Of a stretch of DNA of 64,000 nt, positions 4,424 through 45,289 are shown piece by piece (position 1 is the stretch's first letter; the number at the start of each line of letters is the position of its first letter). Under the pieces are notes generated by a model. It saw nothing but the letters and a program-made list of their open reading frames with translations, made no database searches and had not been told where the DNA came from. The translations under genes were made by a program, and so were the position numbers. Origin of the DNA: an uncultured Burkholderiales bacterium (GTDB lineage Bacteria > Actinomycetota > Acidimicrobiia > IMCC26256 > JAGPDB01). The stretch is from positions 3,588 to 67,587 of the forward strand of contig CAZFAO010000005.1 of the NCBI GenBank assembly GCA_964516875.1, written 5' to 3'.

Positions 4424-4951
4424 TTATCTGATTTCCTCAAACAAAATCGCTCCGAGAACAATGACTACCAATATCAACCCAAGAGCGCTGAGTGATGCCG
4501 GCTCAGCGAACAACCCCAGCACAGCGAGCAAACAAAGGACTGCGTTTCTCACGCAAGAAAAAGATCGCGCAGGCTTATTCGAAAGATTGCCAAAGCATCG
4601 ACAGGGCTGTTGAGATTTTCTGGTGAGATCGATAAAACACACGACTGCAAAACCAGCAAAAAGACCAACCATCGTCAACTGCGTGACTCCGCGCAGCGGA
4701 CCCCCATACGCACAAAAAAGAATGACACAAAACGCGATGATGAGCTCGATACGCCAGAGCCAACTTGACTCCTCAAAACTCTTGATGATCGGTTCAAAAG
4801 AATGTTTGATTGAAAACTTCATTTGTGGTTGGTGAATGCGTTCTGTGCGGATGTTCGTGAACGATTCCATCACACTTTTGAGCAATGCGCTACAAATCAG
4901 AATAGGCGCAAGAGCATAGGGTAGCTGCGACACGAGGTCTTGATAAGTCAC
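4424..4951 (-). CDS. Small polytopic membrane protein, MauE/DoxX-like
   Basis: 175 aa with 4-5 TM helices and a CRCFGNL motif resembling the C-x-C-F-G motif of MauE-type proteins. Confidence 0.45.
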   Translation of the reverse strand: MTYQDLVSQLPYALAPILICSALLKSVMESFTNIRTERIHQPQMKFSIKHSFEPIIKSFEESSWLWRIELIIAFCVILFCAYGGPLRGVTQLTMVGLFAGFAVVCFIDLTRKSQQPCRCFGNLSNKPARSFSCVRNAVLCLLAVLGLFAEPASLSALGLILVVIVLGAILFEEIR

Positions 4952-4994
4952 TCAAGTATTGTAGAAGCACAATAGAAATGGATATGAATCGCGT

Positions 4995-11983: not shown

Positions 11984-13057
11984 TTAGAGTTGTTGGTCAG
12001 TTACAGCATGACGTCTACGGTAAACGGTTGCCGCTGTTGCCCAGCCGATCCCGAGCAATGCAAGCGCGATAGGGATAATCGTTTCTGCATTCCGTCCGGT
12101 ATAGGCCAAGAGACCTGATGCACTTGTCTTTGATCGATCATCTGATGCAGAAGATCCCATTACAATTGCGTCGGCCGCTTGTTCATCGGTTATCGGTTGT
12201 GTTGTTGATGTTTCAGTAGCAAGCACGCCACCTGGATCTACAACATCTGACACCGCTTGCGGAGCGGCGGGAACATCAATAGCAGGTGTGGGGACAGTCG
12301 CACCGATGGATGCAGCGCTATTGATTGTGTTGCCATTGAGTTCAACGCCTGCTCCACACGAGAGCAATGATCCACGGATGGAAGCACCCGTGTTTGCCAC
12401 GATTGATGCATGAGCAAACAATCGTCCGGCAAATCGGGCAGCAACACCGATGTCGGCATTACCTCCCACCTGCCAGAAAACGTTGTTCGAGTTTGCACCA
12501 TTGATAAGTTTGATGACTGCGTTTGCACCAACATTGAGATTTGCATTTGCTTTCAATATAAAGATTGCGTTGGAATCACCTTGTGCATCAAGCGTCAACA
12601 CTCCGTTAACACGAAGTACGTCTGCGACATAAACACCAGCAAATAATGTTGTGCCGCCGAGTTCAGCGTTGAGTGTTGCATTGATTGGACGAGCAGATAG
12701 ATGTGCATAGATTGCATCGCAATCTGCTTTGACTTGTGTAGTCGTTGAGTTGCCTAAGTTCACAAGACCATTGAGAGATATTCCCACGGGAAGAACTAGG
12801 CCGAGAAGTGAAGTAGACGTATGAACGTCAACATCACCACTGATTGTTGAGGTGCCATTATTGATGAGACCTATGTTGGCGAATACAGATACATTTGCTA
12901 CGTGCCCAAGAGGAACGCTATTTTCTGCATAGGCAGGTTTTTCGCTCAGTCCAAATCCTAAAAAAGCAATCAGGACAATGAGGGTTGTTGCTAATAATTG
13001 AGAGGCCCAAGAAGTCGAGAATGGCTTGGCGGGTGTCGCTTGGATTAAAGAATTCAT
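11984..13057 (-). CDS. DUF3494 ice-binding-like (IBP) family surface protein with LAxTG sortase signal
   Basis: GGTTLFAGVY, LTLDAQGDSNAIFILKA and NNVFWQVGGNADIG blocks are typical of DUF3494 beta-solenoids. N-terminal signal/TM. C-terminal LAYTG plus a hydrophobic stretch plus RRRH. ATG 13057 has GAAGGTGA upstream; the track start at 13180 was not used. Confidence 0.8.
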   Translation of the reverse strand: MNSLIQATPAKPFSTSWASQLLATTLIVLIAFLGFGLSEKPAYAENSVPLGHVANVSVFANIGLINNGTSTISGDVDVHTSTSLLGLVLPVGISLNGLVNLGNSTTTQVKADCDAIYAHLSARPINATLNAELGGTTLFAGVYVADVLRVNGVLTLDAQGDSNAIFILKANANLNVGANAVIKLINGANSNNVFWQVGGNADIGVAARFAGRLFAHASIVANTGASIRGSLLSCGAGVELNGNTINSAASIGATVPTPAIDVPAAPQAVSDVVDPGGVLATETSTTQPITDEQAADAIVMGSSASDDRSKTSASGLLAYTGRNAETIIPIALALLGIGWATAATVYRRRHAVTDQQL

Positions 13058-13216
13058 TTCTCTTTCACCTTCGATTCTGGAAGTTATTCCACATAATGCA
13101 TCGCCATAAGGAAAAAATAACCGTGTACAAAATCTCACAGAAAACGAAGTACTTTTCGTAGTGTTGATGGAGTTCGTCACGAGACATGGACGAAGAAACT
13201 CTCAGGAAATTCAGCA

Positions 13217-13247
13217 GAGATCCTTCGGACTACGTCCTCTGGATGAC
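13217..13247 (-). repeat. Dispersed repeat, long unit (locus A)
   Basis: Minus strand reads GTCATCCAGAGGACGTAGTCCGAAGGATCTC. It belongs to the same family as the units at 24389-24481, 27463-27549 and 45232-45289. Confidence 0.7.
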
Positions 13248-13408: not shown

Positions 13409-13412
13409 AGAG

Positions 13413-13496
13413 TGCCCAAGAGGGGACTTGAACCCCTACGCCCTTTCGGGCAAGCGGTTTTAAGCCGCTCGCGTCTGCCTATTCCGCCACTCGGGC
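13413..13496 (-). tRNA. tRNA-Leu (anticodon UAA)
   Basis: Manual fold: acceptor GCCCGAG/CTTGGGC plus discriminator A, anticodon stem AGCGG/CCGCT with loop CUUAAAA, long variable arm, and T-arm AGGGG-TTCAAGT-CCCCT. CCA is not encoded. Confidence 0.9.
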
Positions 13497-24388: not shown

Positions 24389-24481
24389 GAGATTCTTCGT
24401 CGCTGCGCTCCTCTGAATGACCGGTGTAGTTGTCATCCCGAGCGCGTTCCCTGTCATCCAGAGCGAAGCGAAGGATCTCCC
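24389..24481. repeat. Dispersed repeat array (locus B): inverted long unit, short unit, long unit
   Basis: 24389-24421 is the reverse complement of GTCATTCAGAGGAGCGCAGCGACGAAGAATCTC. 24432-24452 is GTCATCCCGAGCGCGTTCCCT. 24453-24481 is GTCATCCAGAGCGAAGCGAAGGATCTCCC. The array fills the convergent orn / 24484 intergenic space. Confidence 0.75.
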
Positions 24482-24483
24482 TC

Positions 24484-26424
24484 TTAAAACGAACGGCCTT
24501 GTTCTTGTTGCGTAGGTGGCTGACTAGCTGATGCTGGTGCATTCCTCGTTGGTTGAACTGGTGCAACATCAATCACGTCTGTCGAAGCAATCTCAGGTGA
24601 AGCATCACTTAACGCGCGTTCAATGAGATACGCAGTGTCGCTTTCCGGTTCAAGAACAACTCGCGTTTCAGTGAATCGAACACGTAGAAGCGTCTCGAGA
24701 ATTTCTTCTGCAGTCTCCTCGTGCTGATCCACAAGATCAAATGCAGCTTTCACAAAATATTTACGCAGCGATTGAAAAGTATTCGGTGGAACTAGTTTGT
24801 CGAGAGAGATAAACCATTCAATTTCATCTGGATTTTGTTCCGCAGATCGATGAGCAAGATTGGAGAGAAATCGAACTCCATCAAGTTCTGGAATGTCGTT
24901 CAGAAATCCTATCTTTGCACCAGATAAAGTCATCCCTTGTTGGACGAGAACAAAAGTTACTCCATCTGCAAATTGATGCGTTTCAAAATTTCTTGCCGCA
25001 ATATCTAGAGCAATCTGAGAAAGCTGTTGTTTGTTTCTTTCCACAATCGAAACGAGATCTTTTTTTGCCTGAGATCTCACACGTTTTCCTGCAAATGATT
25101 TATCATCACTATGCCGATTGAGACGCTCAAGCACATCAGCAATCTCACGAATAATCTCAGTATCGGCAATGCGCTGCTCATTAATTTTCTTCTCCGCAAG
25201 TGCTTCGCGAGAAGCAACAGCTGCTTCATGCGCAGTTACCGTTGCTCTATCATTAGCGATGATTGATTTTTGTTGAGCAATCTCGTCTCGAATCGCATCT
25301 GCTGCGCCAGTTAATTCGTCAAGTTCTGCTTGTGCCTCTTCAATAAGTTGAGAACGTTGCGCCAATGCAACATCTGCGTCATCAAGTTGGACTCTTGCAG
25401 CTAACACTTCTTTTTGTAATTCCGCAGACAACTTATCCAGTGGAATTGTGTCAAAATCAATGCGACCAAGTGCTTTTGATTTTCGAGCGAGAAACATGTC
25501 ATCAATAACAACAAAAATGCCGTGAACATCATCGGTTCTATTTACTGTTAAATCACTCATCTCATCCATCTCAAAATCCATTTGAGCGGCATTTGCTAAA
25601 AACGATGCCAGATAGTCCCGCGTTTGAGCATCAAATTGTGCATATTTTGGATATGCTCCTCTAGGCAATCGAAGGTCATGAAAGATTTGAGCCAGTTGCA
25701 GCTCTGAGATCTTTGCCATGCCAGGTTCCACTTGGAAGGAAAAATATCTATCACCAGTACGCGTATTCTGTCTTTTATGAACTGAACCACGATCCACATA
25801 ATCTGTAGAAAATGAAAGGAGATCTTCAGAAAATACGAGTTGATCAGGCGTAAAACGATAATGGGTGTGGAGAGGACTCCAATAAAAGTTGGCATCAACT
25901 TTATCGCAGATGTCTCTAAATTTGGGGTTAACCTCCATTGATTGTCCTACGGGTAGATAAAACCCATTAGGTTCCGCAATGAGAACATGTACTTTATAGG
26001 GATCTTCTTTAGCGCTAAAATGTAATTTGCGTCTCTGAGTTTCAATATAAGCATTATCTGAGTACGGCAACGTAACGGAAATAATGTCAACTACACCACG
26101 CGATTTCAATAATCGTAACTGTTCAATTTTTGCATCTCGTGTAGCTTGAGAAGTCACCTCAGCAGAATCAGCATCATGAAAACCTTGCGTATTTTGAAAT
26201 TCAAATCCCATTGCGGGAAAAAGTCTTTCTTCAAACGGTAAGTCTTTATTGGTCGCTGTAGTAGCAAAAAGTGGCTGATTTACTGGACCTCCATCAGTCC
26301 ATACAACTGATATTTCACCACGCTTAACGCGCCGTTCGAGCTCACGTTTAAAACCACGAAAGGGCTCGATGTCTGGCGCTTGGCCTTGGAGCAGGACAAC
26401 AACGCCTGAAAGTGGAGTACTCAT
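24484..26424 (-). CDS. Large hypothetical protein with central coiled coil
   Basis: Long ORF (662 aa from GTG 26472, or 646 aa from ATG 26424, which is preferred). It has a ~330-aa N-terminal globular region, a ~110-aa heptad-rich Ala/Glu/Gln segment, and a C-terminal domain with a Pro/Gln tail. No known motif was found. Confidence 0.6.
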   Translation of the reverse strand: MSTPLSGVVVLLQGQAPDIEPFRGFKRELERRVKRGEISVVWTDGGPVNQPLFATTATNKDLPFEERLFPAMGFEFQNTQGFHDADSAEVTSQATRDAKIEQLRLLKSRGVVDIISVTLPYSDNAYIETQRRKLHFSAKEDPYKVHVLIAEPNGFYLPVGQSMEVNPKFRDICDKVDANFYWSPLHTHYRFTPDQLVFSEDLLSFSTDYVDRGSVHKRQNTRTGDRYFSFQVEPGMAKISELQLAQIFHDLRLPRGAYPKYAQFDAQTRDYLASFLANAAQMDFEMDEMSDLTVNRTDDVHGIFVVIDDMFLARKSKALGRIDFDTIPLDKLSAELQKEVLAARVQLDDADVALAQRSQLIEEAQAELDELTGAADAIRDEIAQQKSIIANDRATVTAHEAAVASREALAEKKINEQRIADTEIIREIADVLERLNRHSDDKSFAGKRVRSQAKKDLVSIVERNKQQLSQIALDIAARNFETHQFADGVTFVLVQQGMTLSGAKIGFLNDIPELDGVRFLSNLAHRSAEQNPDEIEWFISLDKLVPPNTFQSLRKYFVKAAFDLVDQHEETAEEILETLLRVRFTETRVVLEPESDTAYLIERALSDASPEIASTDVIDVAPVQPTRNAPASASQPPTQQEQGRSF

Positions 26425-26529
26425 ATATCTTCTCTGAAAAAAGCCGGAGGGTCCATAAAGGACATAAGGCACATTGTACTAGGCGGAAATGATCTGCGCA
26501 AAAACGGTTAGTACCTGTTCAGCAGCACT

Positions 26530-27462
26530 TTATGAAGTAGCTGCGCTCAACCATAAACCGTCCAACAGATCAGTACAACTCACCACAATCGACGGTAATT
26601 CAAAGTGGCGCATGATGGCCACGACGATTGCGGCGCCTGCAACAATCACATCTGCACGTTCAGGTTCAAGACCAGGATTATGTTTGCGATCTTCCAAGGT
26701 TTCTGTAGCGAGGGTGCGGAACACATCTTCGGCTGCTTCGCGCGTAAGAACGAACTGGTGAATTGCGTCAGCATCGAATTGCACCAAGCCAAGTTCGACA
26801 GCTGCGATTGTTGTCACTGTCGCTGCAACACCAACCCACGTTCGATTGTTCACAATTTCTGGAATCTCTAGTTGCACTTCTTTTAAATACTCACGAACTT
26901 CACTAATCACATTGGTGAGTTCTTCGGGTGCGGGAGGATCAGAGCGAATGTGACGGTTCGTCATCACGACACTTCCCAGCGGAATTGATTTCACTGTGGC
27001 ACATGTTTCAAAGTTCTTTGTATCGGACAAAGCAAATTCCGTCGATGCTCCACCAATATCAAAAACAACACTCGGCGTTTCGAGAGTCAATCCACTCATC
27101 GCACCCGCAAACGCAGTTTCGCCTTCTTGTTCACCTGAAATTACTTGAGCGCTTACGCCAAAATCAGTGCTCACATGTGCAATAAAATCAACACCATTTT
27201 TTGCTCGTCGGGCAGCTGCTGTTGCAAAAAGTGAAATGTTATCTTTTGTTGCACCACTGTCGATTGCGAGAGAAATAAAATCTGAAACCGCGTTGCGTGT
27301 TGCATCCATTGATTCATCGGACAACACGCCGGTTGCATCGAGACCTTTTCCTAAGCGGGTGATGCGAACATCACGGACAATATCGATGGTGGGATTATGA
27401 GTATCGCGAACAAGAACGCGCGTGGTGTTGCTTCCGATGTCGATAACGGCGATGATGGTCAT
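26530..27462 (-). CDS. ppx: Exopolyphosphatase / guanosine pentaphosphate phosphohydrolase family (Ppx/GppA)
   Basis: 310 aa. ASKHA-fold motifs VIDIGSNTTRVLV and VFDIGGASTEF. The ATG overlaps the upstream stop (ATGA). Confidence 0.85.
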   Translation of the reverse strand: MTIIAVIDIGSNTTRVLVRDTHNPTIDIVRDVRITRLGKGLDATGVLSDESMDATRNAVSDFISLAIDSGATKDNISLFATAAARRAKNGVDFIAHVSTDFGVSAQVISGEQEGETAFAGAMSGLTLETPSVVFDIGGASTEFALSDTKNFETCATVKSIPLGSVVMTNRHIRSDPPAPEELTNVISEVREYLKEVQLEIPEIVNNRTWVGVAATVTTIAAVELGLVQFDADAIHQFVLTREAAEDVFRTLATETLEDRKHNPGLEPERADVIVAGAAIVVAIMRHFELPSIVVSCTDLLDGLWLSAATS

Positions 27463-28040
27463 GGGAGATCCTTCGCTTCGCTCTGGATGACAGGGGAAGT
27501 GCTCCCGGTGACGGGGAAAGTGCTCCCGGTGTCAGGGGAAATGTGCGACTTTAGTTCGTCAATTTTATTCAATGTCCATTGCCCCACGGCATCATCACCC
27601 GAACCAAGAAGGTTGGCAACGTGGGTGTGAAGACATTTGAGACCTCGTCGCGTTCCTCCCACACCACCCGTGGGGCGAGGACCGTCATACGTGGGTGAAA
27701 TAAGAAAATCGCGCTGTTGCTCATAGTGATCGTGAATTTTCGCAATTGTGTCAAAATCAATTTCTTCTTGTGCAAGTTTGACCCCTCCCATACTTTCAAC
27801 TCGCGAAACATCAGCAACAAGTTGCTTATCAATCAACCAATAGCGCGTGGGCATGGGTGTCCCATCATTAAAAAACGGGGCGTTTTCAATCACCGTTGGT
27901 TGTGCATGTGCATCGCGCGCTGCGATACAAAATTCTCCTTGGGGAACTTTGCCTAAAAGATCAATAACCAATTCCCGCTCGGCAGAAGTTGGTTCAACCC
28001 ACGTATCGGGTTTTATCCACTGCGGCGATTCGAAAGACAT
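27459..28040 (-). CDS. DUF501 protein, C-terminus extended through a repeat array
   Basis: 193 aa in the conserved position between ftsB/divIC and ppx. GGVGGTRRGLKCLH is typical of DUF501. The last ~29 residues (SHISPDTGSTFPVTGSTSPVIQSEAKDLP) are encoded by repeat units 27463-27549. Confidence 0.75.
   Translation of the reverse strand: MSFESPQWIKPDTWVEPTSAERELVIDLLGKVPQGEFCIAARDAHAQPTVIENAPFFNDGTPMPTRYWLIDKQLVADVSRVESMGGVKLAQEEIDFDTIAKIHDHYEQQRDFLISPTYDGPRPTGGVGGTRRGLKCLHTHVANLLGSGDDAVGQWTLNKIDELKSHISPDTGSTFPVTGSTSPVIQSEAKDLP
27463..27549 (-). repeat. Dispersed repeat array (locus C): partial unit, two 21-nt short units, then a long unit
   Basis: The minus strand reads as follows. GTCGCACATTTCCCCT (27549-27534); GACACCGGGAGCACTTTCCCC (27533-27513); GTCACCGGGAGCACTTCCCCT (27512-27492); GTCATCCAGAGCGAAGCGAAGGATCTCCC (27491-27463). 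The last unit is 29/29 identical to 24453-24481. Confidence 0.8.
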
Positions 28041-44137: not shown

Positions 44138-45223
44138 ATGACGATAGTTACACCACCCAATGAATTCGCAGGTGTCGGCACAAAAAAAGTCGGAACACTC
44201 AAACCCGCTCTTGATGCAATCCCGCGTGAGTGCCTTGAGCGTCCCACACGTAAAGCAGTCTTTGTTGTCGCTCGTGCAGTTGCATTGTGGATTGCGTCCT
44301 TGGTTCTTTTGTTTGCATCAGACAATCCATTCATTGTTGCCGCCGCTTGGATTTTTGGTTCGCTCGCTCTAGCGGGAATGTTTGTTGTCGGTCACGATGC
44401 CGCACACGGTTCTTTATTCAATTCGAAAAAAGTCAACAAGTGGGTGGGACGATTATTATTCCTCCCCGAACTTCATTCCTATGAAGGATGGCTACTCGGA
44501 CACAACCGACTTCATCATGGACACACTGTGCGCGAGCAAATGGACTTCGTGTGGATGCCCACAACGCCAGCAGAATATGCGCGCATGTCAACGTTTCGAA
44601 AATTTCAACACCGCGTGGAATGGAGTTTTTTAGGATCGGGTCTGTATTACATACGCAATGTGTGGTGGGACAAGATGATTTCGTTTACGCCTCCTGAGCG
44701 TTATCGCGAACGCATTAAAAAAGACGTACGTTTTGTTGCGCTTTTTGGTGCCGTCTCTATTACTGCTCTGTTTGCGTATGGATTGCATTATTACGGCGAT
44801 ATCCTTGGTGCAGCATGGTTAGTTGTCAAAGTGATTGCTGTTCCGTGGTTTGGATTCATGACCATCATTGGGTGGACTGTGTATGTACAACACATTGCTC
44901 CCGACATTAAGTGGTGGCCACGCAACCAATGGGATAGTTACAAAGGTCAGATTGAAGGAACAACTGTTTTGTATTGCCCACGCATAATCAACGAGCTTTT
45001 CTTTTATAACATCTTCATCCATGTCCCCCATCATGTCGATATGCGTATTCCGTGTTACAACTTAGAAAAAGCAGCCGATGCATTAATTGAAGCGTTTCCT
45101 GACATCAAACATAAAAAATTGCGCTATCGCGATTATCTTCGCACGGCTCGAATATGCAAACTCTATGATTACGAAGAGCACACATGGCATGCCTACGACG
45201 GAAGTGTGACTGCGCTTCCGTAA
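44138..45223 (+). CDS. Membrane fatty-acid desaturase
   Basis: 361 aa. Three histidine boxes HDAAHGS, HNRLHH and HVPHH, plus TM helices. Confidence 0.85.
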   Translation: MTIVTPPNEFAGVGTKKVGTLKPALDAIPRECLERPTRKAVFVVARAVALWIASLVLLFASDNPFIVAAAWIFGSLALAGMFVVGHDAAHGSLFNSKKVNKWVGRLLFLPELHSYEGWLLGHNRLHHGHTVREQMDFVWMPTTPAEYARMSTFRKFQHRVEWSFLGSGLYYIRNVWWDKMISFTPPERYRERIKKDVRFVALFGAVSITALFAYGLHYYGDILGAAWLVVKVIAVPWFGFMTIIGWTVYVQHIAPDIKWWPRNQWDSYKGQIEGTTVLYCPRIINELFFYNIFIHVPHHVDMRIPCYNLEKAADALIEAFPDIKHKKLRYRDYLRTARICKLYDYEEHTWHAYDGSVTALP

Positions 45224-45231
45224 TCACACCC

Positions 45232-45289
45232 GTCATTCAGAGGATAAGTCCGCCCGTCATTCAGAGGAACGAAGTGACGAAGAATCTCC
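45232..45289 (+). repeat. Dispersed repeat array (locus D): short unit plus long unit
   Basis: GTCATTCAGAGGATAAGTCCGCCC (45232-45255) followed by GTCATTCAGAGGAACGAAGTGACGAAGAATCTCC (45256-45289). It lies in the intergenic space between the desaturase and the RibD_C-like gene. Confidence 0.75.

Follow-up and report, generated by a model that had tools for sequence, protein, structure and literature searches.

Hairpin repeats in an Acidimicrobiia genome window are probably gene-less relatives of the repeats that flank ssn nuclease genes

The closest described system pairs Ssn proteins with short NTS/SRM hairpins (Chenal et al., Nat Commun 2025; PMC11893778). SsnA, a 94-aa single-domain GIY-YIG protein (cd10448), binds the Neisseria NTS (CGTCATTCCCGCGMAVGCGGGAATCYRG) as ssDNA only, not as RNA and on one strand only, and cuts a few nucleotides upstream, with mutagenesis assigning cleavage to the 3 nt before the palindrome and binding to the C after it (PMC11893778). 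Ssn homologs, most of those published being from Pseudomonadati, occur across phyla flanked by SRM hairpins, with an IS-like NTS-ssnA-NTS layout, and in N. meningitidis the system reduces transformation by NTS-bearing DNA (PMC11893778). The published assays used NTS-type hairpins of Neisseria and Wolbachia, and the SRM search string is a heuristic derived from 29 genomes of 4 phyla; 81% of genomes with >200 SRMs encode an Ssn homolog, and 29% of ssn regions are without an SRM (PMC11893778).

A second described group comprises the CGTC-tagged REPs (Di Nocera, De Gregorio and Rocco, BMC Genomics 2013; PMC3733652), which carry a CGTC, TGTC or CCTC tag, a stem of 8-9 bp that begins with AT, a loop of 4-5 nt and a short unpaired tail of CCA type, and occur mostly as head-to-head dimers. 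The survey counts dRS3 of Neisseria and RPE-4 and RPE-6 of Rickettsia among them and names five phyla, Actinobacteria not being one of these; it found no associated enzyme gene and no link to tyrosine transposase genes (PMC3733652). That a hairpin repeat can be partnered by a small GIY-YIG ssDNA nuclease is thus already published, and the DNA described here adds a host lineage and a structural sub-type.

The window, by which we mean the whole 64-kb stretch of DNA analysed, comes from a metagenome-assembled genome of Acidimicrobiia (Actinomycetota) with the local gene order eno-divIC-DUF501-ppx; the placement rests on this gene order and on the names of the closest Ppx relatives, 'Acidimicrobiia bacterium' and 'Acidimicrobiales bacterium'. 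It contains five long and four short repeat units, for which the initial annotation had given coordinates, strands and sequences that all proved exact on re-reading. The units, together with two genes bordered or altered by them, are as follows.

13217..13247, minus strand: long unit A, GTC-ATCC-A-GA-G[GAC GTA GTC]C-GA-A-GGAT-CTC
24389..24421, minus strand: long unit B1, the inverted partner in the head-to-head dimer of locus B
24432..24452, plus strand: short unit directly 5' of B2, consisting of tag, 5' arm and pyrimidine-rich tail
24453..24481, plus strand: long unit B2, reduced to the minimal core GA-GCGAAGC-GA and adjoining the 662-aa ORF at its stop (24484)
24484..26472, minus strand: 662-aa ORF, no Pfam family, between ppx and orn with the locus B repeats
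27459..28040, minus strand: DUF501 gene, whose last ~24 codons (…SPDTGSTFPVTGSTSPVIQSEAKDLP*) come from three repeat units
27463..27491, minus strand: long unit C, identical to B2
27492..27512, minus strand: short unit GTCACC-GGGAG-CAC-TTCCC-CT, with a small hairpin right after the tag
27513..27533, minus strand: short unit whose tag is degenerate (GACACC...) and which repeats the 27492-27512 unit in tandem
45232..45255, plus strand: short unit beginning 9 nt past the stop of a fatty-acid desaturase gene (44138-45223)
45256..45289, plus strand: long unit D, in whose upper stem AC..GT replaces the GC..GC of B1 by compensatory change

These units occupy four loci. Locus A lies between a tRNA-Leu gene (13412-13496, minus strand) and the start of a gene for an ice-binding-like protein (11984-13180, minus strand), with unit A in the sense orientation to both; locus B fills the convergent gap between orn and the 662-aa ORF, where unit B1 lies 17 nt past the orn stop codon; locus C sits at the DUF501/ppx junction, and locus D between the desaturase gene and a gene with a RibD_C domain. 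The ice-binding-like protein on the minus strand (398 aa; Pfam PF11999, E 1e-35) is encoded directly downstream of unit A and the tRNA-Leu gene. The perfect identity first noted between the B and C copies is real, but its length was understated, as the exact match between B(+) and C(-) spans 33 nt (CCCT plus the 29-mer) and not 29. By direct comparison, the short units 24432-24452 and 27492-27512 are identical at 15/21 positions.

For the head motif GTCAYYSNGAG the window has 10 matches, where 1.0 +/- 1.06 would be expected; 0/100 shuffles reached this count, and two of the ten matches (at 801 and 9174) are unrelated and lie inside genes. A permissive regular expression for the long unit returned exactly five copies in the 64 kb. 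The proposed arrangement of one or more short units preceding a long unit, [short]n-[long], is real and recurs in other phyla. Within the window no transposase or integrase lies beside the units, in agreement with the first reading, and a phmmer search with GIY-YIG sequences found no GIY-YIG/ssn gene anywhere in the 64 kb.

Judged by comparative sequence evidence, the long unit is a structured hairpin formed by the purine-rich strand as ssDNA. From the 5' end, its predicted order begins with the tag (Y)GTC, which is followed by the lower-stem arm AT-NNN and by tandem G·A pairs that may be joined by an extra A. Next come an upper hairpin with a hypervariable stem, a G-C closing pair and a G-N-A triloop, and then the return arm NNN-AT and an unpaired C(TC). 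All five long units share the frame GTC-AT...AT-C. When the arm positions were left unconstrained in the search pattern, the 144 cross-phylum matches listed had complementary 3-nt arms of at least 10 different kinds (TCT/AGA 40, CCT/AGG 25, TGC/GCA 22, TCC/GGA 12, GTT/AAC 11 and others), so that AT-NNN pairs with NNN-AT. For units flanking GIY-YIG genes, described below, the covariation score was 0.177 compared with 0.081 after shuffling, with 0/500 shuffles reaching it; 78% of cells were paired, compared with at most 54% when the partner was slid, and all six upper-stem pairs had changed on both sides.

The conserved interior of the cross-phylum units, GA-GCGAAGC-GA(A), may be interpreted as tandem sheared G·A pairs stacked under a GCGAAGC mini-hairpin with a G-N-A triloop, a reading that combines the sequence with what is known of nucleic-acid motifs. 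Longer cores keep the plan: B1 reads G-GA-GC[GCA]GC-GA-C, and unit A, which folds into the same two-tier hairpin, reads GGAC[GTA]GTCC, while the core of unit D, G-GA-AC[GAA]GT-GA-C, has an A-T pair in place of G-C. The CAG/TCAG arm of the window, with its A·A mismatch, was present in none of the inspected GIY-YIG-flanking units. For single units, nearest-neighbour folding energies were as low as -1 to -3.4 kcal/mol in size and did not exceed those of shuffles; the energy model gives no credit to non-canonical G·A pairs. The hairpin rests on covariation and these non-canonical pairs and not on folding energy, by which alone it would have been wrongly dismissed. At locus B, where the inverted and direct long units had been suspected of forming a long imperfect hairpin, the ssDNA is indeed predicted to fold in this way at -19.1 kcal/mol (z = -2.5; 4/200 shuffles as good).

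To place these units among other bacteria, one genome per species (596 Gb) was scanned with the pattern GTCATNNNGAGCGAAGCGAN{3,4}ATCTC, which has 21 fixed bases and for which we put the chance expectation, by our own estimate and not by a tool's computation, at ~0.5 matches. This 27-28-nt pattern was found at no fewer than 120 loci in >15 phyla. The matches listed include Acidobacteriota, Chloroflexota, Nitrospirales, Bacteroidia, Clostridia, Cyanobacteria, Planctomycetota, Verrucomicrobiota, Omnitrophota, Saccharimonadales, Gemmatimonadota, Alpha-, Gamma- and Deltaproteobacteria and others, and the isolates Calothrix PCC 7716 and Sphingopyxis are among them. The scan thus bears out the likeness to intergenic repeats of other phyla that was suggested in the first reading. 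In many phyla, short 'head' units of 18-24 nt (tag, 5' arm and pyrimidine-rich tail) are stacked 5' of a long unit, and inverted pairs, both tail-to-tail and head-to-head, likewise recur across phyla.

Several repeat-bearing loci showed further organisation. A Bacteroidaceae MAG (L010, 3563-4219) has seven tandem copies with a period of 105 nt, each of them a larger conserved repeat (…taggcgcagccaat…GTCATGTTGAGCGAAGCGAAACATCTC…) that encloses a unit of the GTT/AAC stem type. In eight stretches, from Acidobacteriota and in one case from a Saccharimonadales bin (L009, L012, L031, L032, L045, L053, L084 and L114), the unit is part of a larger palindromic composite. Its conserved outer motif, ACAGGCTGCGGAAAAA, lies ~30 nt 5' of the unit and on both sides of tail-to-tail pairs, which suggests a longer MITE-like derivative. 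Six IMG/VR contigs classed as viral (L001-L006) carry units with the TCA/AGA arm of the window (GTCATTCAGAGCGAAGCGAAGAATCTC), and no GIY-YIG gene was found on these stretches.

A phmmer search with GIY-YIG sequences identified two ~96-aa genes beside the repeats, one in Planctomycetota (L017) and one in Omnitrophota (L035), each bracketed by inverted units with their heads outward; both proteins, the two that were scanned, match Pfam GIY-YIG. A strict GIY-YIG regular expression applied to the repeat-bearing loci gave a single match, which was false and was discarded. We then sampled by protein alone, which yielded 600 metagenome stretches, 592 of them encoding relatives, and analysed the best 80 of the 592, namely those closest to one Omnitrophota-type query and hence biased toward the TGC-stem variant. 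With a strict expression, an upstream (+) unit was found at 51/80 of these loci, a downstream (-) unit at 49/80 and both at 35/80, compared with 7/679, 13/679 and 0 at control positions in the same loci (1%, 1.9% and 0%). The start of the downstream unit usually falls at the end of the stop codon, from 2 nt before it to 10 nt past it (TGAGATTGC...).

Conversely, a covariance model, R1, was built only from GIY-YIG-flanking units and used to search 128 kb, in which the five long units of the window were its top five matches and a short unit its sixth. Unit B1 ranked first (35.1 bits, E 8e-6) and unit D second (31.1 bits, E 6.5e-5); unit B2 scored 23.0 bits (E 0.004), unit A was fifth (14.9 bits, E 0.27), and the short unit 24432-24452 followed (11.5 bits, E 1.5). 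Unit B1 differs at 2/32 compared positions from the unit upstream of one of the sampled GIY-YIG genes (L164). More distant homologs on contigs from a viral collection are flanked by related GTCAT/GTCAC hairpins, and the short unit 27492-27512 resembles the GTCAC-hairpin units beside such homologs (L227-L233).

The protein of the Omnitrophota locus (L035, 4104-4394) shares 52% identity across 90 residues (E 2e-32) with a 94-aa protein of N. gonorrhoeae, in which Y6, Y17 and E64 are present and whose gene lies between CGTCATTCCCGC.CAGGCGGGAATC (NTS) repeats. Given this identity to the gonococcal SsnA ortholog, the sampled proteins are members of the Ssn family, and the repeats of the window are, in kind, hairpin partners of Ssn. 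Comparison of one cassette (L136) with three others (L145, L158 and L192) showed similarity starting at (T)GTCAT and ending at ATGAC, with unrelated sequence outside. Because the copies cease to be homologous at the outer GTCAT heads, the gene with its two hairpins behaves as a discrete IS-like module, of which solo and paired hairpins are gene-less derivatives.

Two cassettes had features of their own. In N. gonorrhoeae (L236, 250-790), the NTS right after the stop of the ssnA ortholog has the same orientation as the gene, which differs from the inverted layout of most metagenome cassettes. In the Planctomycetota MAG, a ~95-nt direct repeat (4900-4992 and 5451-5545 of L017) flanks a complete hairpin-ssn-hairpin cassette, and may have arisen as a long target duplication, by tandem duplication of host DNA or through insertion into a repeated gene end.

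The same format, that is, a short tagged hairpin present as solo copies and inverted dimers at gene junctions and gained or lost between relatives, is also that of classical REP/REPIN elements mobilised by RAYT (TnpA-REP, an HUH Y1 transposase of the IS200/IS605 superfamily), and HUH enzymes likewise act on ssDNA hairpins (PMC6006769). We nevertheless consider a RAYT origin very unlikely. The tag is (Y)GTC and not GTAG, and CGTC-tagged repeats are reported not to be tied to tyrosine transposase genes in the survey by Di Nocera et al. (PMC3733652). Clustering of 7,414 ORFs from 126 repeat-bearing loci and the window returned two-component regulators as the sole recurrent family, so that these generic regulators, and no recurrent Y1 transposase, lie near the repeats, whereas sampling by GIY-YIG protein recovers flanking units at ~60% of loci against 1-2% of controls.

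REPs of E. coli have secondary roles as terminators and in mRNA protection. The window units could accordingly be RNA-level hairpins of 3' UTRs or intercistronic regions, selected for termination or mRNA protection and with no tie to a nuclease. At 3/4 loci the flanking genes run in one direction and the units have the sense orientation relative to them, and at locus B they fill the convergent gap and fold as a long hairpin; the CGTC survey also describes such secondary roles for the E. coli elements (PMC3733652). Inverted units around ssn, however, place one purine-rich and one pyrimidine-rich copy in each transcript, a symmetry of DNA and not of RNA. No T-run follows the hairpins, and no Rfam family matches them: at the gathering threshold the whole window yielded two tRNAs only, and a permissive scan of locus B yielded chance-level matches. 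SsnA moreover binds ssDNA and not RNA (PMC11893778), and convergent selection for terminators would not be expected to produce one 27-nt sequence in >15 phyla. An RNA-level origin is thus improbable, while a secondary RNA effect of the units is possible.

Two relatives, L128 and L129, are syntenic with the window, with Ppx identities of 73% and 71%, which allowed the presence or absence of units to be compared at orthologous junctions, as the initial annotation had advised; units are present in the window and number 0 in the 42 kb of L128 and L129. In these relatives the DUF501 orthologs are 168 and 163 aa long and overlap the ppx start directly. In the window, 71 nt of repeat are translated at the DUF501 C-terminus as ...SPDTGSTFPVTGSTSPVIQSEAKDLP*, beyond the Pfam domain, which ends at residue 157/193. 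The DUF501 stop still overlaps the ppx start (ATGA), an overlap restored by the tail of unit C, and this tail, GAAGGATCTCCC, precedes the ppx ATG, so arranged that unit C would supply both the DUF501 stop and an SD-like AGGA for ppx. Because the relatives have no units and a shorter DUF501 that overlaps ppx directly, the window units are, on this comparison, a recent gain in the host's Acidimicrobiia lineage. The protein C-terminus has been rewritten by an in-frame insertion inside a tightly packed, conserved gene row, eno-divIC-DUF501-ppx. Palindromic elements of Rickettsia also insert in frame into protein genes, and the window case is much like theirs.

An exact-protein look-up with the Ppx of the window yielded a public Logan short-read contig of the same organism (L127; run SRR8893623), 1.9 kb long, whereas Orn yielded none. 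This contig stops precisely where long unit C has its head, at position 2, as expected of a multi-copy repeat; assemblies break at these repeats. Such breaks may also explain why many contigs with ssn homologs are <3 kb long. At locus B, orn converges directly on ppx in L128 and L129, where both the 662-aa ORF and the locus B repeats are absent. The product of this ORF has a long coiled-coil-like middle, and the repeats border it on one side; a PADLOC scan of it returned insignificant matches only (LmuB ATPase region, E 0.004). This ORF could have been inserted as cargo, possibly in connection with the repeats.

The DUF501 tail also bears on whether the units are a conserved coding peptide repeat or alike by chance, both of which together have a negligible likelihood. 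Translation does run through one unit array, at the DUF501 C-terminus, and the peptide ..SEAKDL.. named in the first reading turned out to be literally right, as unit C reads ...VIQSEAKDLP* at the end of that ORF. Yet 4/5 long units are intergenic, units lie on both strands, and unit A has an in-frame stop in the SEAKDL frame. The suspicion that the units might be conserved coding sequence in relatives did not hold either: the only coding overlap, the DUF501 tail, was made by insertion, lies outside the Pfam domain and is absent from the orthologs. Peptides such as ..SEAKDL.. and ..SEAKNL.., which recur in predicted proteins, are instead explained as spurious products of the repeats, the DUF501 end being one case. 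Chance is excluded by the head-motif shuffles, the cross-phylum scan and the matches of R1.

Taking these observations together, we propose, with a probability of roughly 0.8, that the window units are orphan, non-autonomous copies of ssn-flanking hairpin repeats belonging to the superfamily of CGTC/TGTC-tagged REPs (NTS/SRM type). By analogy with the published system, an Ssn homolog, encoded elsewhere in the genome or formerly present, would recognise them. The short units may be remnants of tag plus 5' arm, or small hairpin variants, and would pile up 5' of the long unit, where cleavage would occur. The original label of a REP/MITE-like element with conserved head and tail and a variable core was sound as to anatomy, but the elements are neither classical REPs nor IS-derived MITEs bounded by terminal repeats of the DDE type, and in this respect the filing was too generic.

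A wider reading is more tentative, and we hold it at somewhat less than even odds. The two-tier hairpin (Y)GTC-AT-NNN-GA-[G...variable hairpin...C]-GA(A)-NNN-AT-C might be a distinct and very widespread Ssn specificity class that the SRM string misses; the [hairpin-ssn-hairpin] cassettes might be true mobile modules with exact GTCAT termini; and gene-less derivatives might have invaded Gram-positive Acidimicrobiia and remodelled gene ends there, giving DUF501 a new C-terminus and stop and ppx a new ribosome-binding region. If so, the class would represent a new family of programmable-looking ssDNA cutters, with a fixed tag and G·A platform and a free upper stem, and a tractable case for how such repeats multiply, a question on which the exact cassette termini and the gain of solo hairpins at gene junctions both bear. 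Because the SRM motif misses this large cross-phylum class, current counts of repeats and of 'orphan' Ssn genes are underestimates. With the principle already in print, the finding opens no new field, and its interest is modest.

Hammerhead-type ribozyme cores, K-turns, integron attC sites, CRISPR repeats and IS200/IS605 ends were set aside as candidates, since their conserved positions do not fit the units, and a literature search on the DNA strings of the repeats and the peptides they encode returned primers only or nothing. The likeness to the Ssn NTS/SRM system is closer. Both have a (C/T)GTC tag directly before a palindrome that starts with AT and an unpaired C after it; both occur as solo copies and as inverted copies that bracket a single-domain GIY-YIG gene of ~95 aa; both are widely spread across phyla; and the GIY-YIG protein of L035 is 52% identical to gonococcal SsnA. 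The broad features of an Ssn-associated repeat, inverted flanking units with GTC before and C after the palindrome, are thus found here.

The window units are nevertheless not NTS (CGTCATTCCCGCGMAVGCGGGAATCYRG), and their resemblance to it is limited to the tag, the initial AT and the C that follows the palindrome. The NTS is one continuous 8-bp stem, whereas the hairpin described here has two tiers, namely a lower stem of 4-5 bp, a purine loop GA/GA(A), a hypervariable upper stem and a 3-nt loop. The SRM string HGTCWYN(0-2)YYVSBRHN(0-5)WNVSBRGN(0-2)RNCYNB matches 0/9 window units and has 0 matches in the whole window; it matches 1/100 GIY-YIG-flanking units of the two-tier class and does match NTS-like hairpins at three loci (L212, L220 and L222). 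The window further differs from the published Ssn systems in its host, an Acidimicrobiia, and in carrying the repeats without an ssn gene, and its units are not known to be tied to natural transformation.

With the CGTC-tagged REPs the units share the tag, 7/9 reading TGTC or CGTC when the preceding base is included (the exceptions being GGTC at 24389-24421 and TGAC at 27513-27533), and the first stem pairs, A-T then T-A, given by AT...AT in all five long units. They also share the short unpaired 3' tail and the head-to-head dimer, common in that group and represented here by locus B; families with different stems coexist within one genome in that survey (PMC3733652), as they do here. By contrast, the stem of the window units is broken by G·A/A·G mismatches, spans 9-11 positions with these included and carries a loop of 3 nt, or of 5 nt with the closing pair opened, and the tail is CTC(C) and not CCA. 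The GAGCGAAGCGA core may nevertheless be that of one of the families CGTC-1 to CGTC-4.

REP/REPIN-RAYT and IS200/IS605 elements resemble the units in being ssDNA hairpins with an unpaired guide or tag and in having many gene-less copies, and REP-RAYT systems also in the REPtron architecture, in which repeats bracket a single-copy enzyme gene. The enzyme fold, however, is HUH/Y1 there and GIY-YIG here, and the tag is GTAG there and GTC(A) here. REP sequences, finally, are lineage-specific, whereas the 27-nt sequence of the window type recurs across phyla.
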